DNA of 64,000 bases from a virus, in the IMG/VR virus record IMGVR_UViG_3300018080_006015, positions 1-64,000 of that record. One strand, given 5' to 3'. Shown piece after piece: positions 6,901-64,000 of the stretch (position 1 is the first letter of the stretch; every line of letters starts with the position of its first letter). A program made the position numbers and the translations under genes. The notes beneath the pieces are model-generated. The model was not told the origin of the DNA. It did not search any database and was given only the letters and a program-made list of their open reading frames with translations.

Positions 6901-9900
6901 AGGAGTGTTTGAGGCGTGGTCATTAGGTATAAGCAATTTATATTTGAATGCAATTGATTATACGGAGGGTATATCTTTATTACCCGCAAAGTTTGATTTA
7001 GGTGTACTAATTGATGATGATGGAGAAACAATAACATTTCCGACATCTAGCAATCTTAGATTAGAAGAGGGAACTCTGGAAATGTGGGTAATTCCAGAGT
7101 GGAACGGTCTTGATAATGATGCCACATTAACATTTGAAGTATTTAAAAAAGATGGCACACACGTAGCTGCTGACGATATTTATATTGGTGCGAGCAGTTA
7201 TCATCCAACAATGGATTTAAATAATAGATTTGTTGTAAATCGGAAGGATGTTCCAAGTCCTATTGGGTTGCCTTCTGCTATATTTAATCAGGTTGGATTT
7301 TTCATTTATTACGACGAATATGCCAAGAGATGGAATGTTTTGGCCCGAGCATATGTGGGAAATAAAGCATATGATGGGTATCACATTATGGGTGGGGCAG
7401 TATATTATGGTACTATAGAATCATCCGGCGAAGTATATGATGCAAAATGGATACCGGGCCTTGGTGAAATTGATGACGTTTTGCGCAGTGGAATGGAAAA
7501 AATAGAATTCAAATTCAATTTAGATGGCTATGACGTTTTAAGTCCAGATGGCTATAAAGATGGATACAATGATGGGTATGTGCCCGGATATTCGTTTGAT
7601 GGCATTACATTTATGGCTGATAATGAGCACTATTTGTTTGATTTTGGTAAAACAGAATCAACCAACAGGTTTTCATTATATAAAGACGGCCGTGGTTATT
7701 TAAATTTTAGGGTGTTTGATAATGGTAACGCTGTTACTAATAGAAAAAACCAATTCAAAGTTAGTGCGGATATTTCAGATTGGCTAGCTGGCCAAAAACA
7801 TCATGTAGCCGTATCGTGGAAGCTTAATACATCTGATAGGCAAGATGAAATGCATTTATTTATAGATGGTTTTGAGATGCCTAATATTATGAGATATGGT
7901 GGTAGGCCAGTTGCTACGTCGTCGGATAGATTTAGAACAGTCAAACCAGAAATTGTGGCTGGTGTAGTTCCACTTAATGTCGTAACCAACAATGACATGC
8001 ATACGGTTGCCGGATCAAATATGGTTTATTCCGATAGTGTTAATTTTACATCAGAGGGGATTGTAGTCGGAAATACCATTCACATTTTGGAGCCAGGATT
8101 TACCACTTACAATATACTTGCTGTTATTGGAAATACCTTACAATTAGATTCGGCCATGCCATCCACATTTGATGATGCAAGATTTTCTGTAAACGAATAT
8201 TCTGTAGTTGTGTCAAGTGAAATAAATTTGTTTAACAATATTGCCGTTTCTATTATTAGTGGTGGCGTTGAAACAGAGATTCCAGGCCTTAGAGCTGATA
8301 TTCCAAGTTATTCTATTAGTAAAAATGTTTATAACGAAGATGTGTTGTCTTTATTGGGAAGTGCTAAGGCGGGAGATCAAATTGCAATAAGAACTCTTGG
8401 ATTAAACCATAGGCGAGCAAGGGCCAGACAATATGTTTGGGGCAATACTAGTAGTGTTATAAAAACACAATTGCCACCACCAATTTATTTGGATGAGGCA
8501 AAAATTTATCCTGTATTATACCCTATCGAGTCAATTGGGCCTCATAATTCTGTTCTTATTGGTGGAAGATTTTTTGCTGCTGGATTAACTACAAGTCAGC
8601 CATCAAATGATACGGAAGGAAGGACATTGGCTGTAAGAATGACGGGAGGTAATGTTAATTTTTCAACGCCTCCTGTTGTAACTATTTTTGGAGTAACGCC
8701 ATCGGGCCCATTAGCAGAGGTTTTAACATTTAACTCTCCCTCCATTCAAAATACCACAAATAAGTTTTTGACAGTTGCATCCATCAATATTGAGGCAACC
8801 CCAATAGTTACGACACAAAACAGTGTCTCTGTAGAAATAAAAGAGGCATTTCCAATAACATTTTCTGAAGGAAATTTAATATTCCCTGTATTGAGGTTTA
8901 GTTATAAGACACAGATGGGTAAAACGCTTGAGGGCACAGGAAGCAATGTTGTTACAGATCATGGCGGGTATTTTGTAGATTCTAATGTTGGTCAGAAATT
9001 AGTTATAAACTCTCCGGCCGCGGTTGCCGGAACTTACACAATAACAGGGCGTATAGATACCACAAATATTACTATAACGCCCGCTCCGCCAATAGCATTC
9101 AGTAATGGAAACTATAGTGTGTTTAATGTTACTTTGGGCAGAAGCGGTTTCCAAAATGGATTTTTTACATTTGAGGTTGCTGGAGCTACAAATGAGCCAT
9201 TTCCACTAAAACAAGGGTGGTATGAATTTGATTATTCTGCTCATTTAGAGATTCCGATGGATCCGGTAAATAATATAGAGTCTCATATTGGATCTGATAT
9301 GAATAGTCACAAGCCGGCAAATGCTATTATTGATGAATTTAGAATTTTATCTACACAATTAACAGATGTTCGTGTGGGCGAGTCATTGGCGGAAAACGAA
9401 GATTCTATAACTACAGATTATACCGCATTAAGAGAATTTATTGCAAATAGTGACACTTTAATGTTGTTGCATTTTAATGAACTTCCATTGTCTAATGATG
9501 CAGATTTTTGGGTAACATCTACCAGAGATTATTTGCAGTCTGGCAGTAGCGTTAATAGTAATTTTGATAAAAGTTTAATTGTGGCGGATAAGCCTTTGGT
9601 TTACGATAATAGCGGAAGATTACAAACATTATCTGAAGGTTCTATTGAGTTCTGGGTTAGTCCTAAGTTTGATACGTACAATGATCCTAATTTTAGGTTT
9701 TATTTTGATGCGAGTGGATCATTAGAGGAGGAAACCACAAGTTTAACTAATGGCACTGTACAGTTATCAAGAAGTGCCGCTAGTATTTTCAGTGTAAGAT
9801 TGCAAACAGACGTTGATAATGATGGTGTCGATTATTTTGCTGGTGGTAGGTTATTGTCAGATTTTCAAACAATTAATTTGGGAAAGGCATTGCCAGCCCA

Positions 9901-15702: not shown

Positions 15703-16452
15703 ATGTCTGATATTGAATTAAGCATTGTAATACCTGTGCACAATAATGCAAATTTTACTAAATCTGCTTTAAAAGATTTGATGAAATTACCTGGAGATCA
15801 CGAAATTATTGTTGTTAATAATGGTAGCGATGATGATACAGAAATGGTTGTTTTAGAGGCTCAAAGCAAATGCACTTGTGATACCCCTCATGTAGGTTAT
15901 ATTAAATTTGAAAAAAATAGGGGATTTGGAGGGGCTAACAACGCTGGGTATATGGAATCCCTTGGAAATAATGTATTATTTCTTAATAATGATATTAGAG
16001 TAAAGAGTAATTATCGGTTATGGACATTTGATCTTATTTCGTATGCTAAAAAGGGTTATATTGTAGGCACTCAAGGCGGTCTTTTGGATGATGAGTTAAA
16101 TTTTGTAACAGAGGGCATGGGTTTGCCTCAGACTAATTTGTGGTATATGAGTGGTTGGTGTATGTGTGGCTCTAAGGAAACGTTTGATAAACTAAAATTA
16201 AATCATTATAGGGACTTTTCTACGGGGAAAATGTGTAATGGTATGTCTTTAGGTCCGTGGAATGAGTTGTTTTTTGCATATTTTGAAGATGATGATTTGT
16301 CTTTTAGGGCAAAAAAACTTGGAATAAAATTTAAAGAGGTCAAGATTCCAGTTCATCATTTTGGTCGAATGACAGGTAGACAATTAGATTTACAAAAAAT
16401 GTATATTGAATCTAGAGAACTATTTAGACAAGAATGGTTGGGAAAGATATGA
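15703..16452 (+). CDS. Glycosyltransferase family 2
   Basis: LSIVIPVHN, IIVVNNGSDD, NRGFGGANN, FLNND, YFEDDDL. Confidence 0.9.
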   Translation: MSDIELSIVIPVHNNANFTKSALKDLMKLPGDHEIIVVNNGSDDDTEMVVLEAQSKCTCDTPHVGYIKFEKNRGFGGANNAGYMESLGNNVLFLNNDIRVKSNYRLWTFDLISYAKKGYIVGTQGGLLDDELNFVTEGMGLPQTNLWYMSGWCMCGSKETFDKLKLNHYRDFSTGKMCNGMSLGPWNELFFAYFEDDDLSFRAKKLGIKFKEVKIPVHHFGRMTGRQLDLQKMYIESRELFRQEWLGKI

Positions 16453-16682
16453 AAAATAACGAAAAAAACCCATTTATTGAAGAAATTAAAACGCTTGTAA
16501 TGATTGGCGGAATACCATGTGTCATTTTTTTGCTTAGCTGGTTGTTTACAAAGGCGTTTTTTTCCACAGATTCTGTTACCGGTTTATATTTTATTGGTTT
16601 TTGTGTGGGCGCTGCAACTCTTTATGCTATTTATTTGGTGATTTGTAGAATGATTGAGATTTATAGGAATATGAAAAGATGA
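16449..16682 (+). CDS. Small membrane protein (two hydrophobic helices)
   Basis: ATGA overlaps at both ends; two long hydrophobic segments. Confidence 0.65.
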   Translation: MKNNEKNPFIEEIKTLVMIGGIPCVIFLLSWLFTKAFFSTDSVTGLYFIGFCVGAATLYAIYLVICRMIEIYRNMKR

Positions 16683-17479
16683 TTAGGGTTTTAACATTAT
16701 CTTGGAATGGATTAGGTTTTTTAAACAAGCTTAGGGATGGATTGTTTCGTAATTTGGATAAAACAGGTTGTCCATATGAGTGGTATATTCGCTCAAATGG
16801 CTGTACTGATGGAACTCCCGACGAGGCGATTCGGTGGGAAAATACAAAAGTTCTGGCAAAAAATCATAATCGAGATAGTTTTTCAAAAGGTGTAAATTCT
16901 TTGTTCGATTTGGCGTCTCCCGATGATTCTGATATCATTTTGCTTTTAAATAATGATATCGAATTTATATCGGATAATAATATAAAAATGATGATATCTT
17001 TATTAAAAGATAATGCCGCTGGTATGATTGGTAGTAAATTATATAATGAAGATAAAACAATTTCACATTATGGCATTGTAATTTCACACAAATATGGTAA
17101 TTTACCATGGAATTTTAAATCTGGACAGAAATCTACAAAATATGATTCTTATGACAGAAAATTTCAAGCTGTGACGGCAGCTTGTTGCGTACTAACATCA
17201 AAAATATTTAAAAAAGTTAATAAGTTAAATGAGGATTATAACTGGTGTTTTGAAGATGTAGATTTGTGTTTAAAAATTTCTATTAATGAAAATATGCCAA
17301 TTTTTTGTTGTGGAAATACAAATATAATACATCAAACATCTGCATCTCTTAAAAAAAATCCGGTTAACAAGTTATTTATGTCACACAATGTAAATGTTTT
17401 TAAAAGAAATTGGGGGAATAAATGTATTATAGACCACCAATTGTATTTAAACAATCCAAAATATGGACTTGCAATATAA
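16679..17479 (+). CDS. Glycosyltransferase family 2
   Basis: NGCTDGT, LLLNNDIE, AVTAAC, FEDVDLCL. Confidence 0.88.
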   Translation: MIRVLTLSWNGLGFLNKLRDGLFRNLDKTGCPYEWYIRSNGCTDGTPDEAIRWENTKVLAKNHNRDSFSKGVNSLFDLASPDDSDIILLLNNDIEFISDNNIKMMISLLKDNAAGMIGSKLYNEDKTISHYGIVISHKYGNLPWNFKSGQKSTKYDSYDRKFQAVTAACCVLTSKIFKKVNKLNEDYNWCFEDVDLCLKISINENMPIFCCGNTNIIHQTSASLKKNPVNKLFMSHNVNVFKRNWGNKCIIDHQLYLNNPKYGLAI

Positions 17480-17608
17480 TATTTATTTTATATTATTTTT
17501 TTCTATATTTATTAGCACAGATTGGACACCAAGTTCCATTTTTTATAGAGTTTGGCGTTGCAGACCAAATCTCCAATAGACATGTAAGAGTGTTGGTATA
17601 AAGTTATA

Positions 17609-18583
17609 ATGAGGTCAAGATTTAGTACTAAATATTTTCCCTTTTCGCCTGGTATTCCTTGGACAATAAAATATTCCAAATATATTGTTCCGGAAGTGCC
17701 AGGATCTATTGTGTTGTCTAATTTAAAAGATAAAAACATCATTGTTGCTGCTTATAGTGGTTTTTTGGAATCATTTTTTTCATTGGTGTTGTGTGAGATG
17801 ATGAATTACATGCTGCCAAGTTCTAAGTTATTATGGGCCGGGGATGACAGGTTTGGCTCATTGATTAAAATTAATGGTTTGGCAAAATTATATAATGGAG
17901 ATGTAGATCAGTCTGTTTTAGATCGTTATCCTGTGCCTTTGTTTTTTGACAAGGAAAATAATGCATATTTTAACTGTTTGAATAATTATATTGATGTAAA
18001 AACTTATTATACGACTCATGGATATTTTGATTCTAGGGCGGCTGTAAAACAAATAATTGAAAAATCTTTATTTGATTGGGATATCAGATACATGCCTAAG
18101 TTGCGTAATTTGTATAGAGATCACAGCAAGTTGCGCTCTAAACTTGACGTGTCTAAAATTTCAGAGGAGCGGCCATTTGTGTTGTTGTTACCAGATACGG
18201 ATTGGTCTGTACATAATGAGGATTGTTTAGGTTGGACCCCCACACAAATAAAGTCATTTGGTGCATTATTGTCTCAAGAAAATATTCCTTTAATTGTTTT
18301 AACAAAAAATCCTTCTAAATATTTTTATAGTTTTGTTACTGTTTTGCCAATGGAGATGGAATTATTATTGTATTTAATAATGAAGGCTAAATATATTTTA
18401 TCAAGTACGATAGATTTCTTATTAGTTGGAGGGGCTATTTCGGATGCAACTATAATTTCCCGTCCAGTTAGTGGGGAATTCAAACTATCTAAAAATATAA
18501 GGTATTTGGAGGGGAAAAATGTTATATATACAATAGAGGAAATTTTTCCAACGAAAGTGTATTCTTATATTTCAGGAAATTAA
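17609..18583 (+). CDS. Hypothetical protein, possibly degenerate GT9-like GT-B fold
   Basis: Spacing of the FVLLLP..W and LIMKAKYILSS segments resembles GT9, but the canonical LGD and DSG motifs are absent. Confidence 0.4.
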   Translation: MRSRFSTKYFPFSPGIPWTIKYSKYIVPEVPGSIVLSNLKDKNIIVAAYSGFLESFFSLVLCEMMNYMLPSSKLLWAGDDRFGSLIKINGLAKLYNGDVDQSVLDRYPVPLFFDKENNAYFNCLNNYIDVKTYYTTHGYFDSRAAVKQIIEKSLFDWDIRYMPKLRNLYRDHSKLRSKLDVSKISEERPFVLLLPDTDWSVHNEDCLGWTPTQIKSFGALLSQENIPLIVLTKNPSKYFYSFVTVLPMEMELLLYLIMKAKYILSSTIDFLLVGGAISDATIISRPVSGEFKLSKNIRYLEGKNVIYTIEEIFPTKVYSYISGN

Positions 18584-18584
18584 T

Positions 18585-19340
18585 ATGATAGACTGCGTAG
18601 ATATAATGATTGTTACACACAATCGTTTAAAACTAACAAAAGATACATTACAATGTATTTTTGATAATACTGAATTTCCATATAATTTAATATTTGTGGA
18701 TAATGGCTCAGAGGATGGAACTACTGATTATTTAAAACAAATATGTCAAGAAAAAATAAAAAAAATATCCCAATTTAATAATTTTACAATTAAGGAAAAC
18801 GAAAAGAACAGAGGAATAGCCATTGGTAGAAATCAAGCTCTTTCTTTATCTACCAGTAATTGGTTAGCAACTTTAGATAATGATGTCTGGGTTCCAAGAG
18901 GGTGGCTGTCAGAATGTGTATCTATACTTAAGGCGAATAAGCAGTATGCATCTATAGGGGTAAATATGGAACCAAAGCCATATCCATTAGTGACATTAAA
19001 TGGGAAAACATTTCAGGATAAGCCACGTGGTAATCTCGGAACTGCTTGTATGGTATTTAACAGATCTTTGCATAAAATGCTTGGATGGTTTAATCATTTG
19101 GACTATGGGACTTATGGAGAGGAAGATGCGGACTGGGGGATGAGAATTCGAGTTATTGGTTTGCGTTTAGGTTATATTAAAGAGCAGGGCAAACATATGG
19201 GGGAAGGAGAGTACGATATTGGCGCTTATCGCGATTTTAAAACAGAATCGCACACGAAAAACCTACCCAAATTTAACGAGAATTGCCGAGCTTATGCTGC
19301 CCGCAAAAAATCATTGTTTATACCCTTTAATGATGAGTAG
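18585..19340 (+). CDS. Glycosyltransferase family 2
   Basis: IVTHNR, FVDNGSEDGT, NRGIAIGRN, LDND, YGEEDADW. Confidence 0.9.
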   Translation: MIDCVDIMIVTHNRLKLTKDTLQCIFDNTEFPYNLIFVDNGSEDGTTDYLKQICQEKIKKISQFNNFTIKENEKNRGIAIGRNQALSLSTSNWLATLDNDVWVPRGWLSECVSILKANKQYASIGVNMEPKPYPLVTLNGKTFQDKPRGNLGTACMVFNRSLHKMLGWFNHLDYGTYGEEDADWGMRIRVIGLRLGYIKEQGKHMGEGEYDIGAYRDFKTESHTKNLPKFNENCRAYAARKKSLFIPFNDE

Positions 19341-19343
19341 ATT

Positions 19344-21518
19344 ATGGTTGAAATTAGCGCAAAAGAGCTTGGTGCTTATATAGAAAATAAAAGAAGCTGT
19401 AGGATTTCTGAGTTTGGCTGTAGATTGCAGGCCCGTCATGGAATGCTTGTGTTAAATCTGTCTGATTTTGGGGATGTAATATCATATAAGATATGTGCAA
19501 GGCGATGTTCTGGTAATGGTGCGATATCTGTTAGTGGTTCTAAAGATGAAGTTATTGTAGCTTCAAAGGTATCACAATTAATAGATGTTGATGTGGATCA
19601 AAATAGTCGGATACACCTTGTAAGACCAAAAACATCAACCGGAGATATAGATATATATGGTGTTGTATTAGATATAGAAGACGAAACAGATATTAAAGGC
19701 GAAAATGTGATTAATAAGTGGAAATTATTAATATCTAAGTGTAGCAAGCATAACGGTTTGAGATTGGCCAGAGAAAAATTGTTTGCATCGGAAGGTGCTT
19801 TTATAGATTACAATGGTGTTATTGCATTAAAAACAAAGCCAGAAAATTCATATATTGTTGAAAACAATCGTGTTCGATTTATAGGTCCTTGTGAGATTAG
19901 AGATATTATATTTAAAGACAGTGCAAAAAGACCTCCTGTTACTAAGCAGCAAAATGTACCAATGTTTGCGGCTAGAAATGTACCAGCCCCAGCTGCGATA
20001 CCAGAGGCAAATGATTCTACGGCAGCAGATCTTGCCAGATATGATATAACAAAATATAAGGCTGAAATTCCAATAACAATAGATTCAGCACAGTCAGATT
20101 TGGCACAATATGTATCTTATGATTCCGATGCTGTTGGAGGGTTTGATAAATTTAAGGCCAGTCGCACAAAAATGGTAAAGCATATTCATAGCAATGGAAA
20201 AGACTATGTTTTACTTAAAAGTGGAAGTTCTTGCACTATACCATTATCACCACTTGAAGCCGATACAAGTTATATTTGCATTGTAAATTCTAAAAAAATA
20301 GGGGGCAATGGCAAGATCTTTTTTGGTTTTGTTGCAGATGAGGCAACTCCAAAAGAAATTAAAAATATAATAGCAGATGATCGACTATCTGATAAATACA
20401 TATCTATAAAAACCGGCAAAAAAGCATTTAATAAGCCACATAAACTTTATATATCCATGCCAAAAGAACATTGCTCTGGTGATGTTCTTATTGGTCGTGT
20501 ATTAATTGTTAAGGATATTCATAAAGAAAAAATAGATCCAAGAAAACCAATATCTATTATTGATTCTAGTGGTATATGTGGCCTTCCTCCTGTATATAGC
20601 ATAACTGAAGATTTAGAGATTAATGATAACGCATATAAACTTTCCAAAATGTATTCTAGATATCCATTTACTGCATCTGTAAATGAGAAATACGAAGATA
20701 TCAGCGGGAACATTTCGGCAACAACAGTTTCTGGAATGCGGTGGATTAGTAAAATAGGTGGATTTTTCCCAAACTTAAAAATTATAGATAGTAGAAATGA
20801 TTTTATTAATAACAAGCTTTTAATTTGTAAGGCCGGAGCTGTTAGACCCGCAGATCGAGTGTGGATAGACGTTTTTGATGAAGATAGCTTTTCAGATGAT
20901 GATGTGAAAATTTTAAAAGAATGTAAAATGATTTTTAGCCCATCATTATCGAATGTGCAATTTTTAGAAAATGCGTGTCCAAATGTAACTGTTCATTTAT
21001 CACACCGACCATTACCGGCCGTTCCATTTAGAAAGTCTGCATTTTTTACTAACAAAAATTTCGCATTGACATTTAATAGGAATGATAAAATTACCAAAAT
21101 GTTAATAGATGTGTGGGATCAAAACTGGCCACAACTGGCTGTTGTTGGTGCTCGCGGCATGTATCCTGAAAATGTTATTGCCATAAACGAGTATTTGCCA
21201 TATGAAGAATTGTTATTTATATTTTCAAAGGCAAAATTTATTATTGATATACCTTTAGAACATGATTATCATTCATCATTTTTAAGTTTTGCGTGTATTA
21301 TGGGAGTGCCTGTAGTTAGTTCTAATTGGTTTGTGATGGATAAGAAAAATTGCGAGTATATGTTGCGCGATGGTAATGTGGATAATATTAAGGTTCCATC
21401 AGCAGATACTATTAAATCTGGTATAAATTCAATATTGCGCGTGAAAAGTAATTGTAAAGTTGATTATAAGTTAAACCAAGATATGAAAAAATGTATCAGC
21501 GCCTTCTATTCTGCCTGA
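19344..21518 (+). CDS. Large hypothetical protein; C-terminal degenerate GT-B-like domain
   Basis: 724 aa. C-terminal FSKAKFII...ACIMGVPVVSSN resembles the GT4 EA..G.PVV.S region without the conserved Glu residues. Confidence 0.45.
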   Translation: MVEISAKELGAYIENKRSCRISEFGCRLQARHGMLVLNLSDFGDVISYKICARRCSGNGAISVSGSKDEVIVASKVSQLIDVDVDQNSRIHLVRPKTSTGDIDIYGVVLDIEDETDIKGENVINKWKLLISKCSKHNGLRLAREKLFASEGAFIDYNGVIALKTKPENSYIVENNRVRFIGPCEIRDIIFKDSAKRPPVTKQQNVPMFAARNVPAPAAIPEANDSTAADLARYDITKYKAEIPITIDSAQSDLAQYVSYDSDAVGGFDKFKASRTKMVKHIHSNGKDYVLLKSGSSCTIPLSPLEADTSYICIVNSKKIGGNGKIFFGFVADEATPKEIKNIIADDRLSDKYISIKTGKKAFNKPHKLYISMPKEHCSGDVLIGRVLIVKDIHKEKIDPRKPISIIDSSGICGLPPVYSITEDLEINDNAYKLSKMYSRYPFTASVNEKYEDISGNISATTVSGMRWISKIGGFFPNLKIIDSRNDFINNKLLICKAGAVRPADRVWIDVFDEDSFSDDDVKILKECKMIFSPSLSNVQFLENACPNVTVHLSHRPLPAVPFRKSAFFTNKNFALTFNRNDKITKMLIDVWDQNWPQLAVVGARGMYPENVIAINEYLPYEELLFIFSKAKFIIDIPLEHDYHSSFLSFACIMGVPVVSSNWFVMDKKNCEYMLRDGNVDNIKVPSADTIKSGINSILRVKSNCKVDYKLNQDMKKCISAFYSA

Positions 21519-22456
21519 CCCCTATAAAACGTATTGATCATTGTTCTCCACATTCTTTTATATGATATGTGATGATATAATGCTTGTGGTATCATTATTT
21601 TATTTTTTAATTTTTGTAAATAACGTTCATATTCATTTTCTGAATATGATTTGATACGTTCCATTAACTTTGGGCCCAAAATATTATATTCTTTTCCATC
21701 TCTTTTTGTGAAATTTCGCAGATCTATATAAGATTGACTTGGGAAGCTAAAAGCATCTATATTGTAGCATCCCATATAGAGTGGAACAGCTCCGCCCTTC
21801 CATACTTCCGGTAATTTTTCTGTAAAATAGTTGAACGAATATGCTGGGTGATAACAATTTTCAGTACATATAGAGAATTTTACTTGACGCAAAATGTCAT
21901 GTTTTGATCTTATGGGGCCTTTGTAATATGGTCTTTTTAATTTAAAATGGCCATACCATGATATTTTATATTTTGATTGTTGTTTGCTTAGAAAGTCAGC
22001 CAATTGTAATCTTAATGAATATAGTTCTGAATTGTGTGTAGATGATTTGTTATTTGCGATAAATACGATTTCGTTTTTTCTTTGCTTCCAAGGAACCCAC
22101 CCTTTGCCAACCTTTTCCCGTTCGATTCCTAAACAGCTTGGGTGGTTTATTTCTATGACGCGCTTTTTTATTCTGTGATTAGTTATGGCTTTAGTAGCCC
22201 AAGTAAAAATATATTTAAATCTTTTTAGAAATGGAATATTGTAATCTTTGGGCAATACGCAAAATGGTTCTAATACTAAAATGTTATCTCCTGGCTTTGG
22301 ATCTCTAATCGAATACCAACCCATTCCAATATTGATTTTTTGTGGATGCTTTTTTTTGCTGTGCCAGATTTCTCCATGTTCGTTTTCAAATATTTTGCGA
22401 TCTGGCCCTGGTTGGGGGGCATATACTATATTTAGATTTACTCGGTTATTTACCAT
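21506..22456 (-). CDS. Glycosyltransferase family 10 (alpha-1,3-fucosyltransferase-like)
   Basis: KFSICTEN...YFTEKL...GAVPLYMG is the GT10 fucosyltransferase motif. Start placed at MVNNRV. Confidence 0.82.
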   Translation of the reverse strand: MVNNRVNLNIVYAPQPGPDRKIFENEHGEIWHSKKKHPQKINIGMGWYSIRDPKPGDNILVLEPFCVLPKDYNIPFLKRFKYIFTWATKAITNHRIKKRVIEINHPSCLGIEREKVGKGWVPWKQRKNEIVFIANNKSSTHNSELYSLRLQLADFLSKQQSKYKISWYGHFKLKRPYYKGPIRSKHDILRQVKFSICTENCYHPAYSFNYFTEKLPEVWKGGAVPLYMGCYNIDAFSFPSQSYIDLRNFTKRDGKEYNILGPKLMERIKSYSENEYERYLQKLKNKIMIPQALYHHISYKRMWRTMINTFYRGQAE

Positions 22457-22538
22457 ATTTTCCGTATATATATTTAATAGTATTCGAGTGATTTTTTGTT
22501 CGTATATTCTGATATATAACAAATAAAAAGAGGGTTAT

Positions 22539-23273
22539 ATGAAGAAATTTGTTATAGTCATTCCAAGTTATAAAAATAGTTGTTGGTACAAGAGAAATTT
22601 ATCTTCTGTTTTATCTCAAAATTATGATAAATTTAGGGCCATTTATGTAGATGACAAGTCTCCGGATAATACGGGAAATTTAGTAGAAGAATTTTTATCT
22701 GCGCAAGATAAAAAAGGTTTGTTTAAATTAATTAAGAACCAAACTAGAGTTGGTGCGATGAAAAATCTGTATGATATGATTCATTCGTGTGATGATGATG
22801 AAATAATTGTAACATTAGATGGTGATGATTGGTTGGCGCACCCAAATGTATTAAATAAATTAAATAAAGTATATTCTGACGAAGATGTTTGGATGACATA
22901 TGGTTCGTATCAAGATCATCCAAACAATTCTAGGGGCTGTTGTAGACCATTTGAACCGATGGTGGTACAACAGAATGTATTTCGTAGGGCGCAATGGAGA
23001 GCATCACATTTAAGGACGTTTTATAAATGGCTATTTGCAAAGATTCGGCAGGAAGATTTTTATGATCCAGATGGTAAATGGTTAGACATGGCTTGGGATT
23101 TAAGTTTTATGATCCCAATGCTTGAAATGTCTGGTCCACATTATCGTTATATACATGATATTCTTTACATTTACAATAATGAGAATCCTATTTCAGATTA
23201 TAAAGTCAATATAAAACGACAAGGGTTTCTAGATCATTTTATAAGAACAAAACCTACCTATAAAAGGCTATAA
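22539..23273 (+). CDS. Glycosyltransferase family 2
   Basis: IVIPSY, SVLSQNY, VDDKSPDNT, LDGDDWL. Confidence 0.9.
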   Translation: MKKFVIVIPSYKNSCWYKRNLSSVLSQNYDKFRAIYVDDKSPDNTGNLVEEFLSAQDKKGLFKLIKNQTRVGAMKNLYDMIHSCDDDEIIVTLDGDDWLAHPNVLNKLNKVYSDEDVWMTYGSYQDHPNNSRGCCRPFEPMVVQQNVFRRAQWRASHLRTFYKWLFAKIRQEDFYDPDGKWLDMAWDLSFMIPMLEMSGPHYRYIHDILYIYNNENPISDYKVNIKRQGFLDHFIRTKPTYKRL

Positions 23274-23310
23274 TAATATCAGCCATAAGCATATGTGTTT
23301 GGAGTAGTGA

Positions 23311-24051
23311 ATGTCTATAACTTTTTTGCAATTAGGAAATTATGGTCGAATTGGAAATTCATTATTTCAAGCCGCAACAACTATTTCTCATGCTTTATCT
23401 AACAATACCGATTATATATTTCCAAAATGTCCATTATTAGAATGTTTTGTAAATATTCCAAGAAATAAATTTGTTGATATAAATGAAATTTGTAGTTCTT
23501 TTACGTATGAAGAGCCTCATTTTCATTATTCTAAAATACCATTTAAATCTAATATGAATTTACATGGGTATTTTCAAAGTGAGAAGTATTTTAAAGATTA
23601 TACAGATTTAATTAGAGAAACATTATGTCCAAGATATGATGGGCGAATCAAACCTGGTGTTGCAAGTATACATGTAAGGCGAGGGGATTATATTCAGCCA
23701 CATCTTAGTGGGTGTTATAATATATTGGGAATGGATTATTACACAAAAGCTATGGAGATTATAAAGGCACGAAAATATTTGGTTTTTTCTGATGATATTA
23801 TGTGGTGTAAAAAGAATTTTGTTGGAGATAAGTTTACTTTTGTAGAGAATGATAAAGATTATATAGATTTATATATTATGAGCAAATGCGAAAATAATAT
23901 AATAGCAAATTCTTCTTTTTCTTGGTGGGCAGCCTGGTTAAATAAAAACCCAAGTAAGACGGTAATAGCTCCAAAGAAATGGTTTGGTCCAAAATTATCG
24001 CCAACACATAATACGTCTGATTTAATTCCTAAAGGGTGGGTATTGTTATAG
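23311..24051 (+). CDS. Glycosyltransferase family 11 (alpha-1,2-fucosyltransferase-like)
   Basis: GRIGN.LFQ, GYFQSEKYF, SIHVRRGDY, FSDD, IIANSSFSWWAAWL. Confidence 0.92.
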   Translation: MSITFLQLGNYGRIGNSLFQAATTISHALSNNTDYIFPKCPLLECFVNIPRNKFVDINEICSSFTYEEPHFHYSKIPFKSNMNLHGYFQSEKYFKDYTDLIRETLCPRYDGRIKPGVASIHVRRGDYIQPHLSGCYNILGMDYYTKAMEIIKARKYLVFSDDIMWCKKNFVGDKFTFVENDKDYIDLYIMSKCENNIIANSSFSWWAAWLNKNPSKTVIAPKKWFGPKLSPTHNTSDLIPKGWVLL

Positions 24052-24090
24052 TGTTTTCTGGTAAAATATGGAATACAACCACATTAAGAT

Positions 24091-25170
24091 ATGGGAAAAA
24101 AGAGAATAGATAGAGATTTAGTAGTAAAAACATATAAAAAGCTTGGCAGGGTGAAATTAACTGCAGAACACCTATCAATAAGTGTACGTAGTGTTTCAAA
24201 TATATTAAAAGAGCGAAATATTCCATCAGTACCAAGAAATTTACGAAATAAAAAATATGAAATAAACTGTAATTTTTTCAAAAATATAGACACACAAGAA
24301 AAGGCGTATATTTTAGGATTTTTATATGGTGATGGTTGTATAATTCAACATAAAAGTAAAAAATATTCTATGTCATTGGAAATAAAATCGGAAGATGCAT
24401 ATATTTTAGACGAAATGAAAAAACATATGGAAAGCACACATCCATTATATTACAGAAAGCGAAATAAAAAATGGAGTGAAACGGCAACGCTTGTAATAAC
24501 TAATCAAAAAATGTGTAATGATCTAATTAAGCATGGCATGCATGTTAGAAAGAGTTTTGACCTGGAATTTCCACATAAGATGAACCAGCTTTTATATTCA
24601 CATTTTATAAGAGGATTGTCAGATAGTGATGCTTATATAGGTATTGATAAAAAAAATAGAGCTACCTGGAATTTTATAGGAACGTCAGAAATTTGTCATT
24701 CTATTAAAACAATTTTATTAGAACAAAATATTTCGACACGCTTAAAAGTTGTAAATCGTTATTCTAGACCATTAATGAGGGTGGTTTGTACGCGAAAAAG
24801 TGACATAATAAAGTTATATAAATTTTTGTATAATGAATCTACAATACATTTAACAAGGAAATATGATATATTTTCTAATGTAAAATATAAACCAAGACCA
24901 GATATGTCAGGAAAAAATAATCCGTTTTATGGGCGTAAACATACAATGGAGGCAAAATTAAAAAACCGCTTAGCTCATCTTGGTAAAATATATAAAAAAT
25001 CTAATGTTGATGTAACTGGAGAAAATAATCCCAATTCAAAACTTACAAAAGAACAAGTAATATATATAAGAAATAATAATATAGACACAAAAGAACTTGT
25101 GGGATTGTTTGGGGTCAATGCAAGCACTATAAACAGAGTTAAAAATGGCTCAACTTGGTGTTGTATATAG
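24091..25170 (+). CDS. Free-standing LAGLIDADG homing endonuclease with NUMOD3 and HTH modules
   Basis: KAYILGFLYGDG and HFIRGLSDSDA motifs; GKNNPFYGRKHT (NUMOD3); GENNPNSKLT followed by a C-terminal HTH. Confidence 0.85.
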   Translation: MGKKRIDRDLVVKTYKKLGRVKLTAEHLSISVRSVSNILKERNIPSVPRNLRNKKYEINCNFFKNIDTQEKAYILGFLYGDGCIIQHKSKKYSMSLEIKSEDAYILDEMKKHMESTHPLYYRKRNKKWSETATLVITNQKMCNDLIKHGMHVRKSFDLEFPHKMNQLLYSHFIRGLSDSDAYIGIDKKNRATWNFIGTSEICHSIKTILLEQNISTRLKVVNRYSRPLMRVVCTRKSDIIKLYKFLYNESTIHLTRKYDIFSNVKYKPRPDMSGKNNPFYGRKHTMEAKLKNRLAHLGKIYKKSNVDVTGENNPNSKLTKEQVIYIRNNNIDTKELVGLFGVNASTINRVKNGSTWCCI

Positions 25171-25206
25171 GCGAAATTATTGATATTTTAGCGTTATAGA
25201 GAAATT

Positions 25207-26199
25207 ATGATAAAAGTTTTATTCTTACCTCTTAATTATGGCGAAGTGATTCAACGTGGCGTTTATGATGCTTTCGAACAGGCCGGGTGTGAATTGCAAG
25301 TATTTGATTATTTTGCTGTTTATCATAATCGCAGAAAAAACATAAGGGCTACCAGAAGTGAGTTAATTAAAAGGGCATCAGAGTTTAGGCCAGATTTAAT
25401 ACATATGCAAATTCAGCATACAACAATTATTGATGCCGGAACTATACGTGAGCTGAAGAGATTATTGCCGAATTCTATTGTTACAAATTGGACAGGCGAT
25501 GTTAGAAATTACGTGCCAAAATCTTTTAAAAATATTGCTCAAATTGCTGATTATAATTTAATATCATCTACTGGCCAACTGGAAATGTTCAAAAAACAAA
25601 TAAAAGGAAGACATGTTGGTTATTGGCAAATTGGGTATGATCCTAAATTGTATCATCCGTCATATGAACCGCCTTTAAATTTTGATTATGATATAGTTTT
25701 TATTGCCAATAATAATGTAAAAGAGGGTTATCCGGGGCGACCAGAGAGAGAGAAAGTTTGTCGATTATTGAGAAAAGCATTTGACAGACGATTTGGATTG
25801 TTTGGATCTGGTTGGCCCCGAAATTTTCGTTCAAGCGGAAGTGTAGATCAGAAAAGGGTAGCAAAATTTTATCATAAAAGTTGCTGTCTTTTAAGTGTAA
25901 GTCATTATAATAACTTGTCACATTATTTTTCTGATCGTCTTTTGATGTGTCTTGCGAGTGGTAGGCCGACAATATCTTTAAAATTTCCTAATTGGCAATC
26001 TTATTTTACAAACAACTGTGATTTGGTTATAGCAAATTCTATCGAGGACATAGTAACAAAAACAAAACACATGTTACAGAATCCAGATTTGGCAAATTAT
26101 ATTGGCAAATCGGGTGCAGAAAAAGTATTTGCGGAACATACTTATTTGAGTAGGATCAAAGAATTACTAGATATGGTTGGTTTGTCAGGTAGAATATAG
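25207..26199 (+). CDS. CgeB-like glycosyltransferase (GT-B)
   Basis: GYDPKLYHP, DIVFIA, FGSGW, YFSDRL..CLASG, AEHTY..RI. Confidence 0.8.
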   Translation: MIKVLFLPLNYGEVIQRGVYDAFEQAGCELQVFDYFAVYHNRRKNIRATRSELIKRASEFRPDLIHMQIQHTTIIDAGTIRELKRLLPNSIVTNWTGDVRNYVPKSFKNIAQIADYNLISSTGQLEMFKKQIKGRHVGYWQIGYDPKLYHPSYEPPLNFDYDIVFIANNNVKEGYPGRPEREKVCRLLRKAFDRRFGLFGSGWPRNFRSSGSVDQKRVAKFYHKSCCLLSVSHYNNLSHYFSDRLLMCLASGRPTISLKFPNWQSYFTNNCDLVIANSIEDIVTKTKHMLQNPDLANYIGKSGAEKVFAEHTYLSRIKELLDMVGLSGRI

Positions 26200-26207
26200 G
26201 TAATTTT

Positions 26208-26951
26208 ATGATTATAGGTGAAAATTTTGTTTTTATTCATAACCCACATACCGGCGGGGCGTTTATTAGATCTGCGTTTCGTGAGGCGTTGCCATCTGCA
26301 TTTTCTATGAAGTTGGAGGATTGGCATAAGCCTATAGATAGCTTACAGATAAAATATAGGGATAAGATAAAGTTTGGTATGGTTCGAAATCCTTGGGCCT
26401 GGTATGTTTCTTTTTATTTGCACCAACAGCCAAACGGTCAGTTTCTTAGATTATTTTTGGACGGAAAAAGCAATGAATTTTCTAGATTTTTGAGCAATAT
26501 GCTATCTACAAATTTTATAAAAAAGCGAATTGATAGCAAGTTTCATCCTGTGGGAAATCCTTATTTGCCGGTAGGGGTTCCAAAATTTAAGTATATGCAT
26601 AGCTTAGATGTTGGATTTTTCAGTTATCGGTATATTTATATGTTTTGTTTTAATTATAAAGAAATATTTAACGAAGAAAACAAAACAAATATTATAAGAA
26701 ATCATGATAAGTGGTTATCTTTGGATGTTGTTGGAAAAACAGAAAATCTTGTTGCTGATTTGTCTAATTTTTGTATTAAATACAAATTACCGGTTAATAA
26801 AAAACATATGAGTAAATGGCATAAAAGGCCAAAAGAAAATAGTTATACGAAAAAGCCTTATACAAAATATTATAACTCTGATTTGATTAGGCTTGTGGAA
26901 CAAAAAGATAGAATGATAATAAAAAAATATGGGTACAAATATGGCTCATAA
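26208..26951 (+). CDS. Sulfotransferase-like protein (Sulfotransfer_2 type)
   Basis: FVFIHNPHTGG (cf. HIPKTGG), VRNPW..VS.Y, VGKTENL, Y..YY C-terminus. Confidence 0.75.
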   Translation: MIIGENFVFIHNPHTGGAFIRSAFREALPSAFSMKLEDWHKPIDSLQIKYRDKIKFGMVRNPWAWYVSFYLHQQPNGQFLRLFLDGKSNEFSRFLSNMLSTNFIKKRIDSKFHPVGNPYLPVGVPKFKYMHSLDVGFFSYRYIYMFCFNYKEIFNEENKTNIIRNHDKWLSLDVVGKTENLVADLSNFCIKYKLPVNKKHMSKWHKRPKENSYTKKPYTKYYNSDLIRLVEQKDRMIIKKYGYKYGS

Positions 26952-27918: not shown

Positions 27919-27919
27919 T

Positions 27920-39775: not shown

Positions 39776-39784
39776 GGCAAATAA

Positions 39785-41354: not shown

Positions 41355-41366
41355 AGGAGAAAACAA

Positions 41367-42586: not shown

Positions 42587-42588
42587 AT

Positions 42589-43979: not shown

Positions 43980-44950
43980 CTAATAATAAAAAGAAAGACA
44001 ACAATAAAAAAACATCAGATTATACACAAAAAGAAAAAGATACTAAACTAGAAGTGGTAGAAGATGTTATGCGCGACCCTGAAAAAATTCAGGAACAAAT
44101 TGAAGCTTTGCAGAAGATTGGTCAGGATTATACTGATGAAATTTTAAGTGGTAAGGTTATTGAAAGTACAGAAGACGTAGTTACACATCCGGTAGAATAT
44201 AAAGATCCGAAAGATTCTAAAAAGCTTGAGCAACCATTAGGCGTAGCAATAGATTTAGCTATTGAAATGCGAAATAAAAATATGTTGGATGATGATGCAT
44301 TTATTAGTCAAATAAAGGAAATAAGAAGATGGGATGATGATTTGATTTCTGGGTTTCGTAATAATATAATGAGTGATGATGCTTTTATAGATAACACTTC
44401 TAATTCCGATGATACTGATGTTGTGCCCCCTGTTAGTTCTAGTAAATTATCTGAGGCCAACGCATTAATGATTGGTTTTGATAAGAAATACGCAATGTCT
44501 AAGGCGAATTATATTTATTCTAGAACAGTAATGAAACAATACGAAAAAGACTTGCGCAGTAAGGGTGAGTTTAGCATGAAAGAACAATATTATAAAGCCA
44601 CTTGTGAGTTTTTGGCGGCAGAGCGTAATTATAAGATTTATGATAAAGTATATAATATTGTTGTAAAAAACTTAGATGAATTGTCGATTAATTTAGAAGA
44701 CGTTACTCTGCTAATAGAGAAAAACAATCAGGATCCTGATTTGTCGCCTGAGACATTATCTGCATTATTTGCACACTTAATGCCAACAGAAGAGCAGTTA
44801 AAAAAAGAAAAAGAGCGTCGTAATAGAGTTGTCGTAACTGATGACTTATTTGTAAGATATGAAAAGGAAAAACAAAAAAGTAAAAAAGCAATAGAAAAAG
44901 ACACTGATGTTTCAAGCGCTTTTAATAAAACATGCTCACAGAAAGAATAA
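43976..44950 (+). CDS. Hypothetical acidic/charged helical protein
   Basis: 324-aa ORF coupled to fcl; no motif recognised. Confidence 0.7.
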   Translation: MTNNKKKDNNKKTSDYTQKEKDTKLEVVEDVMRDPEKIQEQIEALQKIGQDYTDEILSGKVIESTEDVVTHPVEYKDPKDSKKLEQPLGVAIDLAIEMRNKNMLDDDAFISQIKEIRRWDDDLISGFRNNIMSDDAFIDNTSNSDDTDVVPPVSSSKLSEANALMIGFDKKYAMSKANYIYSRTVMKQYEKDLRSKGEFSMKEQYYKATCEFLAAERNYKIYDKVYNIVVKNLDELSINLEDVTLLIEKNNQDPDLSPETLSALFAHLMPTEEQLKKEKERRNRVVVTDDLFVRYEKEKQKSKKAIEKDTDVSSAFNKTCSQKE

Positions 44951-44953
44951 AAT

Positions 44954-45916
44954 ATGAGTAAAAAGAAAATATTAGTAACAGGATCTTGCGGATTTATATT
45001 TTCAAATTTCGTAAGACATGTCTTATATCATCAAAAAGAGTATGATATTGCCAGTATAGATAAGGTTGTTGCTCCAAATAGCCTTCACAATATTTACGCT
45101 AACAAGGGTCACATTTTTTATGTTGGAGATGTGGCTGATCCTCATTTTATAGATGTTGTATTTCAAATAGAGCGTCCAGATATTGTTGTGCATGGTGCGG
45201 CAGAGACCCATGTAGACAATTCAATTAGTGGTGCGGTTCCTTTTATTAAGTCAAATGTTTTAGGAACTCAAGTTATTGTTGATGCATGTGTCAAATATAA
45301 TGTAGAGCGTTTGATTTATATTTCAACTGACGAAATTTATGGGCAGTTATCTAGTGAGTCAGATAAGGCATGGTCTGAAACTTCTCCACTAGATCCAAGA
45401 AACCCATATTCTGCCTCAAAAGCAGCGGGAGAGCTTATTGTACAAGCTGCAAATAAAACCCATAACTTGCAATATAATATTACAAGATGTTGTAATAATT
45501 TTGGACCACGACAATCTGCAGATAAGTTAATGCCAAAGATAATTAACAACATCATACACGGGGAAAAGGTGCCAATATATGGTCAGGGAAAGCAGTTAAG
45601 AGAGTGGATTCACGTTTTCGATAATTGTGAGGCCATTATGACAATTTTGCGCTCCTCTCCACCAAATGAAATATACAACATATCGTCTGGGTATGAGTTT
45701 TCTAATGTGGAAGTGTTCCAAGAGATTTGTAATGTTATGGAAAAGGGTTATGATTTGTTAAACTTTATTAAAGATCCCAGACCAGGACATGATTTTAGAT
45801 ATTCCGTGGACTCTTCTAAGATAAGAAGTCTGGGGTGGAAACCAAAATTTAGGTTTCGAGAAGGGTTAAAACAGTGTGCGGCCTGGTATATAAATAATCA
45901 GTGGATTTTAAGGTAA
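44954..45916 (+). CDS. rfbB: dTDP-glucose 4,6-dehydratase
   Basis: LVTG.CGFI.SNF, AAETHVDNSI, ISTDEIYG, PYSASKA, NNFGPRQ, REWIHV.D, RPGHD.RY. Confidence 0.93.
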   Translation: MSKKKILVTGSCGFIFSNFVRHVLYHQKEYDIASIDKVVAPNSLHNIYANKGHIFYVGDVADPHFIDVVFQIERPDIVVHGAAETHVDNSISGAVPFIKSNVLGTQVIVDACVKYNVERLIYISTDEIYGQLSSESDKAWSETSPLDPRNPYSASKAAGELIVQAANKTHNLQYNITRCCNNFGPRQSADKLMPKIINNIIHGEKVPIYGQGKQLREWIHVFDNCEAIMTILRSSPPNEIYNISSGYEFSNVEVFQEICNVMEKGYDLLNFIKDPRPGHDFRYSVDSSKIRSLGWKPKFRFREGLKQCAAWYINNQWILR

Positions 45917-60116: not shown

Positions 60117-60686
60117 ATGGGTTATAGTAGTTATCCAAATAAAGTAGATGGTTCAATTGAGCTTCCACCAACTGTTGACAATGTTACACCTGTTAAAGGC
60201 GAAGTTGTTAACAGATTAAGAGATGCCATTATTGCTATAGAATCTGAACTTGGTGTGTTGCCTAGTGGGACATATGGTACCGTTAGAGCCAGGTTAGATG
60301 CTATGGAGGCTCTATTAAGCTGGTTAATTAAAAAAGTTACCGGTGGTGGTACGGGTGCAGCTGGTGGAGTTCCAACACATAAAGATAAGGCGCTAAGTCC
60401 GTTTGTCACTGCTGGAGATGGTTCTTGGACCGGATTGTCATTAACAAAGACTCCTGCAAAAGCGACAAACGGAAATGCCTATGTAACCGTTACCATTAAT
60501 GGATTATCAAGTGTTGTTGGTAATGGTGCGATAAATAGAGAGTGTTATTTTTCCGGTGATGGTGGGGCTACGGCAAGAACTTATAAGCAATTACAAGCCG
60601 GAGATCGTTTATATTGGAATGGTATTATTGCTAATATGGAGCTGGATCCTAATGATACAGTAGATTTTCATTATGACGTTGTTTAA
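60117..60686 (+). CDS. Putative virion structural protein (fibre-associated)
   Basis: N-terminal SSYP..VD...VNRLRDAIIAIESELG..P.G...TV.ARL helical anchor-like segment; C-terminal beta domain shared with the ORF at 63346. Confidence 0.6.
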   Translation: MGYSSYPNKVDGSIELPPTVDNVTPVKGEVVNRLRDAIIAIESELGVLPSGTYGTVRARLDAMEALLSWLIKKVTGGGTGAAGGVPTHKDKALSPFVTAGDGSWTGLSLTKTPAKATNGNAYVTVTINGLSSVVGNGAINRECYFSGDGGATARTYKQLQAGDRLYWNGIIANMELDPNDTVDFHYDVV

Positions 60687-63345: not shown

Positions 63346-64000
63346 ATGACAAAGGTTGATCTAAAACAATTTGCTCAAAGTGGGGCCGTTGACCAAAACG
63401 TTATTCGGTATAATGCAACTACAGGTTTGTGGGAACCTGGTGTGGCAGCTTTTTCTGGTGGTGGTGGTGCCCCTACAGCAGAAGACAAAAACCTTATACC
63501 ATTTGCTACCGGACCTGGTAATGGACAAGATACCGGAATTGAAATTAGCGAAGAACCAATAGGAGATCGTTATGTTACGGTAATTGTTAATGGTATTTCT
63601 TCTAGTATAGGAGATGGATATACCTCGTTGGACTGTTATTTTTCTATAGATGGTGGTCTTACAGCTTTAAATCTGTCTGCGATCACTACTGGTGCTAGGT
63701 TATATTGGAATAGTACGATTGCTGGGTTTCAGTTGGCTCCCACGGATGTAGTTGATTTAGATTACGATGTGTTAGATGGTTACAGTCCGGGCCCAGGCCC
63801 TAGTGGCGATTGTGGTTGGACAGATGATGGCGCTGTGGTTCGTTTGACAACTATTACTGATTTTGTTGGTGTTGGTACTGTTGCCCCTAATTTGAAGTTT
63901 GATGTTGTTGGTGATATTGGCGTTTCTAGTTCTCTAGTTGTTGGTCCATTAGCCACCGCTGCAACTGTTGGTGAAATTCGATTAAATACTGATAACTGGG
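63346..64000 (+). CDS. Tail-fibre-like protein, 5' part (runs off the window)
   Basis: Open from MTKVDLKQFAQSGA to the window end. Shares its N-terminus with the 60702 ORF and a domain with the 60117 ORF; WTDDG.VVRL...VGVGTVAP..KFDVVG fibre-like motif; 2 DGY. Confidence 0.75.
   Translation, partial: MTKVDLKQFAQSGAVDQNVIRYNATTGLWEPGVAAFSGGGGAPTAEDKNLIPFATGPGNGQDTGIEISEEPIGDRYVTVIVNGISSSIGDGYTSLDCYFSIDGGLTALNLSAITTGARLYWNSTIAGFQLAPTDVVDLDYDVLDGYSPGPGPSGDCGWTDDGAVVRLTTITDFVGVGTVAPNLKFDVVGDIGVSSSLVVGPLATAATVGEIRLNTDNW

Follow-up and report, generated by a model that had tools for sequence, protein, structure and literature searches.

Asp-Gly-Tyr, a strict tripeptide of baseplate and fibre proteins in a huge-phage lineage and a candidate site of tyrosine modification

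The bacterial adhesin HMW1 is glycosylated at N-x-S/T by HMW1C, and autotransporters are glycosylated by heptosyltransferases; both systems are cytoplasmic and sequon-directed. Tyrosine glycosylation of S-layer proteins uses an oligosaccharyltransferase outside the cytoplasm. Among phages, mycobacteriophage virions are glycosylated by phage-encoded glycosyltransferases (Freeman et al. 2023, as cited in PMC12619734), and the sections of PMC12619734 drawn on here place the glycans at the C-termini of capsid and tail-tube subunits. Here we describe a tripeptide, Asp-Gly-Tyr (DGY), which recurs in baseplate and fibre proteins of an uncultured phage and behaves like something that is read. The DNA analysed (the window) is the first 64 kb of the 119,629-bp IMG/VR record IMGVR_UViG_3300018080_006015 (G000). 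A first-pass annotation of the window had proposed that DGY is selected at exposed turns of virion proteins, where it would serve as acceptor for an adjacent island of glycosyltransferase (GT) and sulfotransferase genes. Literature searches for a DGY motif in phages found no publication.

Within the window, 60 non-overlapping open reading frames (ORFs) of at least 60 amino acids (aa) were considered. The 23 DGY sites of this set fall in four proteins (5, 12, 4 and 2 sites), and the positions that the first-pass annotation had given for them are all right; its statement that the enzymes of the window are free of the tripeptide also holds, with zero DGY in the remaining 56 of the 60 ORFs. Across the whole record there are 100 in-frame DGY, of which 99 lie in eight baseplate or fibre proteins (2232, 990, 861, 519, 3245, 412, 1648 and 5319 aa; 15,226 aa in total; hereafter the tagged eight) and one in an ORF of 114 aa. 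The last four of the eight are fibres encoded past the window, with 26, 2, 10 and 38 DGY. A composition-corrected enrichment count over the whole record, which that annotation had suggested as a check, gave 6.7 expected against 99 observed in the tagged eight, about fifteen-fold over chance; a first-order estimate gave 18.7, and within-protein shuffles (n = 2000) never exceeded 18 (mean 6.4, standard deviation 2.5). No tripeptide of the tagged eight is commoner than DGY, which is also their top first-order outlier (z 18.6), the runners-up being WYR (9.2, but seen only twice) and LYP (8.3, the next repeat-borne word). The other 86 ORFs (23,670 aa) hold one DGY against 4.3 expected, a non-significant dip, and 85 of them have none. 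The gaps between DGY along the giant proteins (coefficient of variation 0.73-0.87) are slightly more even than random and were not used in the argument.

The word is strict. In the tagged eight, DG is followed by Y in 99 of 257 cases, by F in 3 and by W in none, and GY is preceded by D in 99 of 149 cases, by N in 2 and by E in none; the variants DAY and DSY occur 6 and 2 times and the reverse word YGD 6 times. It is encoded by 12 different 9-mers whose synonymous usage is like the general usage of the proteins, and a degenerate DNA pattern for it matches 103 times on the + strand (100 in frame) and once on the - strand. A motif at the DNA level was rejected on these grounds, and the synonymous variation of the codons indicates that selection acts on the peptide, not on the DNA.

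At least five unrelated settings hold DGY: GKLTV-DGY-[IL]DP, G-run-DGY-W..LYP, xG-DGY-GGG, dockerin loops and tandem (DGYx)n. About 16 sites stand at the opening of a fibre module that recurs and is about 110-140 aa long (..GDVxIxGKLTV-DGY-[IL]DP..EGRIRYN..W..LYP..), about 10 follow a Gly run just ahead of the conserved Trp of the module (GGG-DGY-W), and about 12 stand in Gly-rich rungs (xG-DGY-GGG). Two sites are the D-G-x of dockerin-like calcium loops (Pfam Dockerin_1, E 6.6e-9), both of which read GDGYIT as the first-pass annotation had stated. Two tracts are tandem, DGYKDGYNDGY in the 2232-aa wedge-like protein and DGYDDGYSDGYSDGY in the 990-aa protein. It is hardly credible that composition, or the duplication of repeat modules, has merely simulated the enrichment. 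The tagged proteins are indeed rich in G and D, and the roughly 16 GKLTVDGY sites belong to a single repeated module; against this stand the excess over both expectations, the many unrelated contexts, the variable codons and the presence of DGY in proteins of G000, G002 and other relatives that are neither repetitive nor Gly-rich. The expectation counts and the shuffles led us to reject the artefact.

G000 has an estimated completeness of about 21% (CheckV). Its gene content includes a Baseplate_J protein, a TubZ-like tubulin, helicases and an intein-bearing ribonucleotide reductase, together with a sugar-pathway island of about 31 kb and a series of Gly-rich, Lys-poor proteins of great length, which extends past the window; the capsid and tail-tube genes lie outside the fragment. 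The baseplate J protein is 56-63% identical in G001 (a 94-kb fragment) and G002 (a 153-kb fragment). Since the remoter relatives include the complete genomes G003 (472 kb) and G004 (428 kb), both 100% complete by CheckV estimate, G000 is a fragment of a huge phage. The closest isolate by baseplate J is Bacillus phage G, with 32% identity across 27% of the protein.

Conservation was assessed in eight orthologue pairs of about 49-64% identity, which are not fully independent because two G000 proteins were used twice each. Sites were kept in 62 of 112 cases for DGY, against 36 of 173 for DG followed by any other residue (DG[^Y]) and 15-30% of all tripeptides, so that DGY is kept about three times better than DG[^Y]. 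Each of its residues is kept more often inside the word than elsewhere in the same proteins: Y in 66/87 (76%) vs 290/513 (57%), D in 75/88 (85%) vs 636/1081 (59%) and G in 76/86 (88%) vs 1130/1493 (76%). Replacement of Y by F accounts for 2 of 21 replacements inside DGY vs 60 of 223 outside, and because it is so rare inside the word the comparison suggests that the Tyr hydroxyl matters. The sites also turn over, to DGS, DGT, DGA, DGF, NGY or EGY.

The tag extends through the relatives. Coding-strand patterns number 29 in G001 and 40 in G002, against 1-7 for controls, and a further block of G002 encodes four unrelated Lys-poor, not Gly-rich proteins with 3, 1, 7 and 4 DGY, each expected to hold at most 0.4. 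Orthologues of the wedge-like protein have 4-16 DGY each vs 0.3-0.7 expected, and those of the 990-aa protein have 13 and 5, with 8 and 4 in the loci L048 and L022. A scan of IMG/VR for tandem DGYxDGYxDGY gave at least 118 loci, and among the matches listed there are eleven homologues of the wedge protein, from contigs of low G+C content (GC). At ten of these wedge loci the wedge protein, with the next protein where present, holds 2-16 DGY vs 0.15-0.74 expected, and baseplate J holds none. The outgroup baseplate blocks are not enriched: Bacillus phage G has 2 DGY in 10 proteins vs about 1.6 expected, and LR745208 has 1 in 19 ORFs.

Most matches of the tandem scan are small Gly-X low-complexity proteins unrelated to the tag (L021-L137, e.g., L031, L044, L046 and L108). 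Such Gly-X ORFs occur in over 100 viral contigs with a GC of 0.28 to 0.73; they are mostly about 40-350 aa long and consist almost wholly of dipeptide repeats (GDGYGDGYGYGSG...). A scan of IMG/VR for GKLTVDGY was discarded as uninformative, all of its 11 loci being unrelated chance contexts, e.g., peptidoglycan-binding-like LTVDGYFG.

The fibre module is older and wider than its tag. A full HMMER search of 1.84 billion representatives was made with 1150 aa of the 1648-aa fibre as query, and the best 150 of the 156 relatives were analysed. At least three DGY occur in only seven of these 150 homologues (P0001-5, P0014 and P0015), which are the record's own proteins and close relatives; the four independent close relatives P0002, P0003, P0005 and P0014 have 9, 23, 21 and 7. 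The 135 lower-ranked homologues (84,840 aa) together hold 11 DGY vs 16.6 expected. At the GKLTV site the close lineage reads DGY in 13 of 21 copies, whereas the 94 copies in 78 distant proteins read TGA (30), TGV (13), TGS (9), TGL (7) or DGA (7) among others and never DGY; the central G is near-invariant in these distant copies (91/94). Ahead of the conserved Trp they read AGP, GSG, SSP and similar words. Paralogous module copies within G000 differ in the same way, with DGY in some and STSPW, GSVEW, DGA or VGE in others, and the copy in the 861-aa fibre reads GKLTVDGALDP. The distant homologues of the module are without enrichment, and DGY as an intrinsic feature of the fibre fold was therefore rejected. 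Judged from the copies without DGY in distant homologues and paralogues, the lineage has repeatedly converted pre-existing turn positions to DGY, and the motif appears dispensable for folding. Other searches added little: Pfam, PHROGs, PDB sequences and GenBank phages returned no match for the fibre proteins, tblastn against GenBank phages gave nothing for the 2232-aa protein or the fibre module, a related-loci search gave nothing for the 412-aa, 1648-aa and P0005 proteins, a homologous-protein search with the 412-aa protein returned only itself, and the cluster names of 10 distant homologues were not informative.

Among the individual proteins, baseplate J anchors the gene block as a baseplate, to judge from its Pfam family, and its orthologues in L004-L007 likewise hold no DGY. 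The wedge-like protein has a weak Laminin_G_3 match, and its tandem array is a length-variable insertion between two conserved strands of a conserved domain, with about 3 to more than 10 units in relatives. In the AlphaFold2 (AF2) model this array forms a loop that connects two strands, with a predicted local distance difference test score (pLDDT) under 50; a mean pLDDT of 58.9 marks the entire model as poor, and the placement of the loop is weak evidence for that reason. In the 990-aa protein the DGY cluster at 12426-12824 includes the two dockerin/EF-hand-like loops, and the tandem tract lies at 13371-13415. The first-pass annotation had noted that the domain shared by the 189-aa and 519-aa proteins reads GNGA in the former at the position where the latter reads GDGY, and this difference is real. 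A Cys-rich C-terminal tail (CPxC ... C..C) of the 861-aa fibre (window 63150-63287) also ends P0005, P0014 and P0018 and may be a zinc-binding tip. The 5319-aa protein is encoded by one uninterrupted ORF (G000 83558-99517), and its N-terminus is common with that of the 3245-aa protein.

The fibre module was modelled with AF2 from a 24-row alignment (mean pLDDT 75.8). The first DGY of the module (residues 20-22) lies in a confident extended segment and the second (residues 86-88) at the start of a strand after a floppy Gly run. Strand alternation would put L17, V19, G21 and I23 on one face and T18, D20, Y22 and D24 on the other, an arrangement that would set the Asp beside the Tyr on one face with the Gly towards the core. 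Three copies of the module (150 aa) were predicted to form an intertwined homotrimer (score 0.89 vs 0.00 for the best control), with at least 82% contact agreement between runs and a partner pLDDT of at least 79. In the calibration, which used two copies and alignments of its own, the mark for such a prediction was attained by 20 of the 30 solved same-chain pairs and by 1 of the 23 single chains. The best Foldseek match of the module is weak, to the N-terminal part of CBA120 TSP4 (E 0.42, prob 0.96, template modelling score 0.41).

Downstream of the tagged baseplate genes lies the glycan island, in which 37 ORFs (13645 to 45916) were scanned against Pfam. Its glycosyltransferases comprise one of GT4/GT1 type (hereafter GT4), five GT2, a GT10, a GT11 and a Glyco_trans_1_2; other enzymes are DegT, WbqC, a hexapeptide acyltransferase, five methyltransferases, gmd and two epimerases. 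Four sulfotransferases are Pfam-supported (two Sulfotransfer_4 and two Sulfotransfer_1), and ORF 38981-39775 has in addition a borderline Sulfotransfer_3 match (27.2 bits vs a cut-off of 27; 28.1 with frame neighbours), weaker than its Sulfotransfer_1 match. Twelve of the 37 ORFs have no Pfam family, among them ORFs 17609, 19344, 35815 and 43976 and those at 26208-28717. Neither a flippase, nor a polymerase, nor an initiating phosphoglycosyl transferase was recognised among the 37 by Pfam, and hydropathy revealed no multi-pass membrane protein. Between the 990-aa protein and GT4 a thioredoxin-like protein with an N-terminal hydrophobic segment is encoded (window 14076-14597), and a free-standing LAGLIDADG/NUMOD3 homing-endonuclease-like gene lies inside the island (24091-25170).

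GT4 is the only gene of the island shown to be conserved across the clade. Copies that are 39-50% identical occur near the baseplate block in five of five relatives, and no match was found in the two outgroup genomes, Bacillus phage G and LR745208, which also lack DGY enrichment. GT genes, among them GT4 and several GT2, stand directly 3' of the tagged baseplate protein of about 1000 aa in G000, in G001 and in the records behind L048 and L022. Apart from GT4 the island is variable. In G001 there are four GT2 with a single sulfotransferase, and the 153 kb of G002 hold one distant GT2 only; the L048 island adds a GT6, and G003 and G004 have 2 and 5 GT2 matches. A conserved initiating transferase with a variable tailoring set is therefore a possible arrangement, in which GT4 would be the candidate reader of the tag.

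The sulfotransferases behave otherwise. No match to PF00685, PF17784 or PF13469 was found in G002 (a fragment), G003 or G004, all of which encode DGY-rich proteins; thus G003 and G004 keep DGY-rich baseplate proteins with no match to Sulfotransfer_1, _3 or _4. The suggestion of the first-pass annotation that a sulfotransferase modifies DGY is not supported on this point, and phage-enzyme sulfation evidently does not explain the tag in general. Its wider suggestion, that DGY is the acceptor for the adjacent GT and sulfotransferase island, survives in part: a GT cluster does adjoin the tagged genes and GT4 is conserved, but the sulfotransferases are not conserved with the tag. That annotation had also reasoned that its proposal would be refuted if relatives lacking the island kept the same DGY density; this is partly the case where the sulfotransferases are concerned, while GT4 stays in all five.

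Table 1. Position and content of the features discussed, in coordinates of the window
Feature	Coordinates	Strand	Content
Baseplate J-like protein, 1079 aa	703..3942	+	Pfam Baseplate_J, E 3.7e-19; 0 DGY among 9 DG
Giant wedge-like baseplate protein, 2232 aa	3947..10645	+	5 DGY: 7373, 7523, 7547, 7559, 7571
Tandem DGY loop of the wedge-like protein	7523..7579	+	DGYDVLSPDGYKDGYNDGY, then VPGY
Baseplate-distal protein, 990 aa	10653..13625	+	12 DGY, between 12426 and 13407
GT4/GT1-type glycosyltransferase, 368 aa	14594..15700	+	Pfam Glycos_transf_1 and Glyco_transf_4
Variable glycan island	15703..45916		Pfam; content differs between relatives
189-aa protein	60117..60686	+	Domain common with ORF 63346; BLASTP 47% identity, E 6e-30
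Fibre protein, 861 aa	60702..63287	+	4 DGY: 60834, 60915, 61794, 61926
Fibre protein, 519 aa	63346..64000 (ends at 64905 of the record)	+	2 DGY: 63613, 63775

Two further genes of the window lie between the island and the fibres. The TubZ/PhuZ-like tubulin gene (46008-47372) is of a kind that occurs in some jumbo phages, and the large subunit of ribonucleotide reductase (53713-57525) is split by an intein with a LAGLIDADG domain.

Starting from the enrichment, strictness, lineage restriction and conservation of the word and from the synteny of GT4, we tentatively favour DGY as a tyrosine-directed glycosylation sequon read by the conserved GT4, a proposal that is plausible though still short of probable. 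DGY would then be a three-residue word written repeatedly into the wedge protein, the next protein and most long fibres of a huge-phage clade. GT4, encoded just after the tagged baseplate genes, would attach the first sugar to the Tyr hydroxyl in the cytoplasm, and the variable island (GT2, GT10, GT11, methyl-, acetyl- and sulfotransferases) would extend and decorate the glycan differently in each phage, the outcome being a glycan coat on the fibres. The lack of recognised export or lipid-carrier genes and of a multi-pass membrane protein in the island fits a cytoplasmic acceptor. The fuller version of this proposal is a little more doubtful: a previously unknown sequon, at which a clade-wide GT4 would start a Tyr O-glycan at about 100 sites per virion, the island would tailor it with fucose, methyl, acetyl and sulfate, and the resulting strain-specific coat would shield the virion or mediate first contact with the host. 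Tyrosine modification, the role of GT4 as reader and the action of the island on protein are the parts of the proposal that we infer.

Several points weigh against it. Tyrosine O-glycosylation is rare, and no GT4 specific for Tyr is known to us. The substrate of the island could also lie elsewhere, for example in DNA hypermodification or in glycans of the host surface, both of which are mentioned as roles of phage glycosyltransferases in the sections of PMC12619734 cited here. GT4 and DGY occur together in six records and are both missing from two, but this is one clade against two outgroups, so the co-occurrence counts as a single evolutionary event. Counted over the whole genome, G003 and G004 exceed their controls only about two-fold (71 and 66 vs 33-50), with local clusters, so it is the giant fibres that give G000 its extreme load. 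On pooling the relatives, no avoidance of DGY was found in non-virion proteins, though the lysine cut-off used misfiles one wedge protein. Two fibre-like, Gly-rich, Lys-poor proteins encoded past the window, of 569 aa (G000 99739-101448) and 1260 aa (101500-105282; L002), are untagged. The latter has the fibre module and 18 DG, none followed by Y, for which we calculate a chance of about 2e-4 at the rate of the tagged proteins (99/257). Also without DGY are three paralogues in tandem, each about 270 aa long, whose genes separate the 1648-aa fibre from the 5319-aa one (G000 80957-83415; L001:16957-19415); they have no Pfam or PHROG match and could be fibre chaperones or accessory factors. With these paralogues, the two fibre-like proteins and baseplate J all untagged, the tag marks a subset of the distal virion proteins, not all of them. 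The first-pass description of DGY as confined to virion proteins is borne out by 99 of the 100 sites, provided it is not taken to mean that every virion-type protein carries the tag.

The predicted structure raises a further objection. The inter-chain contacts of the predicted trimer include residues 1-32 and 87-89, so both DGY of the module touch neighbouring chains, and the residue at the Y position of the GKLTV site in the 94 distant copies is A (49), V (18), S (9), L (7) or I (5) in most cases. Given these contacts and the small or hydrophobic residues of the distant homologues, the DGY tyrosines of the fibre module may be partly buried. The view that DGY sits at exposed turns thus finds no support in the model, which places both sites of the module among inter-chain contacts; of the claim that the tripeptide is selected, the strictness, the independence of context and the action at the protein level stand.

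Alternatives to a glycosylation sequon were weighed against the same observations. A ligand-binding unit, in which the Asp carboxylate and the Tyr phenol or phenolate would together make up many weak sites, either for a sugar of the host surface or for a hard metal ion (Ca2+, Fe3+), is a serious possibility, although we doubt it. In a trimeric fibre three DGY would come together around the axis; in the wedge loop, which is monomeric, the ligands would be provided by the tandem array. T4 fibres are known to have metal sites on their axes, and the reading accommodates much of what was seen: the apparent need for the hydroxyl (DGF 3 vs DGY 99), the two DGY in true dockerin/EF-hand loops, the predicted intertwined trimer with both DGY among its contacts, the varying length of the wedge arrays, and module copies with and without DGY in a single protein, which make the motif optional for folding. 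It accounts less well for why the central Gly is strict and E and N are excluded, neither of which is obviously required for ligation; the frame D-x-[DN]-x-D-G is present at only 2 of 100 sites, and the conserved synteny of GT4 is left unexplained. Rather unlikely, in our estimate, is a structural staple special to the lineage, made of a tight Asp-Gly turn and a Tyr hydroxyl hydrogen-bonded across chains or strands, which would stiffen very long fibres. The strict requirement for Gly, also near-invariant at the distant GKLTV sites, the position of DGY in the predicted contact zone and the high conservation of the sites would suit such a staple; but distant homologues and paralogous copies in the same protein build the module without DGY, the fibre-like proteins of 1260 and 569 aa lack it, the tandem arrays in a low-confidence loop are not staple-like, and DGY is present in unrelated folds.

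We regard as improbable that DGY is a docking word for a protein partner, for example a chaperone common to the fibres, a decoration protein or, in a network of several fibres, the contacts at which they branch. Three residues are very short for protein-protein specificity and about 100 sites per genome would demand a very abundant partner, even if only a subset of virion proteins is tagged, the module has a weak similarity to the branching domains at the N-terminus of CBA120 TSP4 (E 0.42, prob 0.96), and the three 270-aa paralogues without Pfam or PHROG match are encoded between giant fibres. Least likely of the biological readings, and by a wide measure improbable, is DGY as a tyrosine-sulfation site for the island sulfotransferases. 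An acidic residue and a flexible Gly beside Tyr suit known sulfation sites, and the island does encode four Pfam-supported sulfotransferases, one with the borderline Sulfotransfer_3 match; yet the DGY-rich baseplate proteins of G003 and G004 persist with no such match, the G002 fragment is also without one, and in a glycan island sugar sulfotransferases are the simpler reading.

Should an enzyme read DGY, the word would count as a new sequon, and a virus would be seen to modify the tyrosines of its particle on a large scale with enzymes that it encodes itself; the large sugar-pathway islands of huge phages, which have no export genes, would also be explained. The word is short and strict, so it is easily moved to other proteins for testing. 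Should it instead bind metal or sugar, phage fibres would have a new minimal unit of adhesion. On both readings, DGY offers a simple way to pick out by sequence which proteins face outwards in a large clade of uncultured phages.

Among known systems, the DxDxDG calcium loops of EF-hands and dockerins are matched by two of the 100 DGY sites (DVNGDGYITEADI and DVDGDGYITAHDV; Pfam Dockerin_1), and the frame D-x-[DN]-x-D is missing at the other 98. Tyrosine O-glycosylation of S-layers and tyrosine sulfation by tyrosylprotein sulfotransferases (TPST) or RaxST have in common with the proposed role of DGY a Tyr hydroxyl as acceptor and a preference for acidic or flexible neighbours. Unlike the S-layer system, the island of G000 has no oligosaccharyltransferase gene or membrane machinery that Pfam or hydropathy could find, and unlike in TPST/RaxST sulfation, the sulfotransferases are not conserved with the tag. 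With the giant bacterial adhesins (HMW1/HMW1C) the proposal has in common surface fibres that are very long and repetitive, a short acceptor word present in dozens of copies and a soluble enzyme encoded nearby that would modify the protein before export or assembly. The word, the residue and the enzyme family all differ from those of the HMW1C and heptosyltransferase systems, and none of the 37 island ORFs has a GT41-like or heptosyltransferase-like Pfam match. Mycobacteriophage virion glycosylation, the nearest published system, differs in its sites, which the cited sections place at the C-termini of capsid and tail-tube subunits, whereas the candidate sites of G000 are about 100 internal DGY in baseplate and fibre proteins, with a putative Tyr acceptor, and are known from sequence alone. 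As far as that source goes, the two are alike in genetic layout and proposed target: phage GT genes stand beside structural genes, and the proteins of the virion itself are the proposed substrate.

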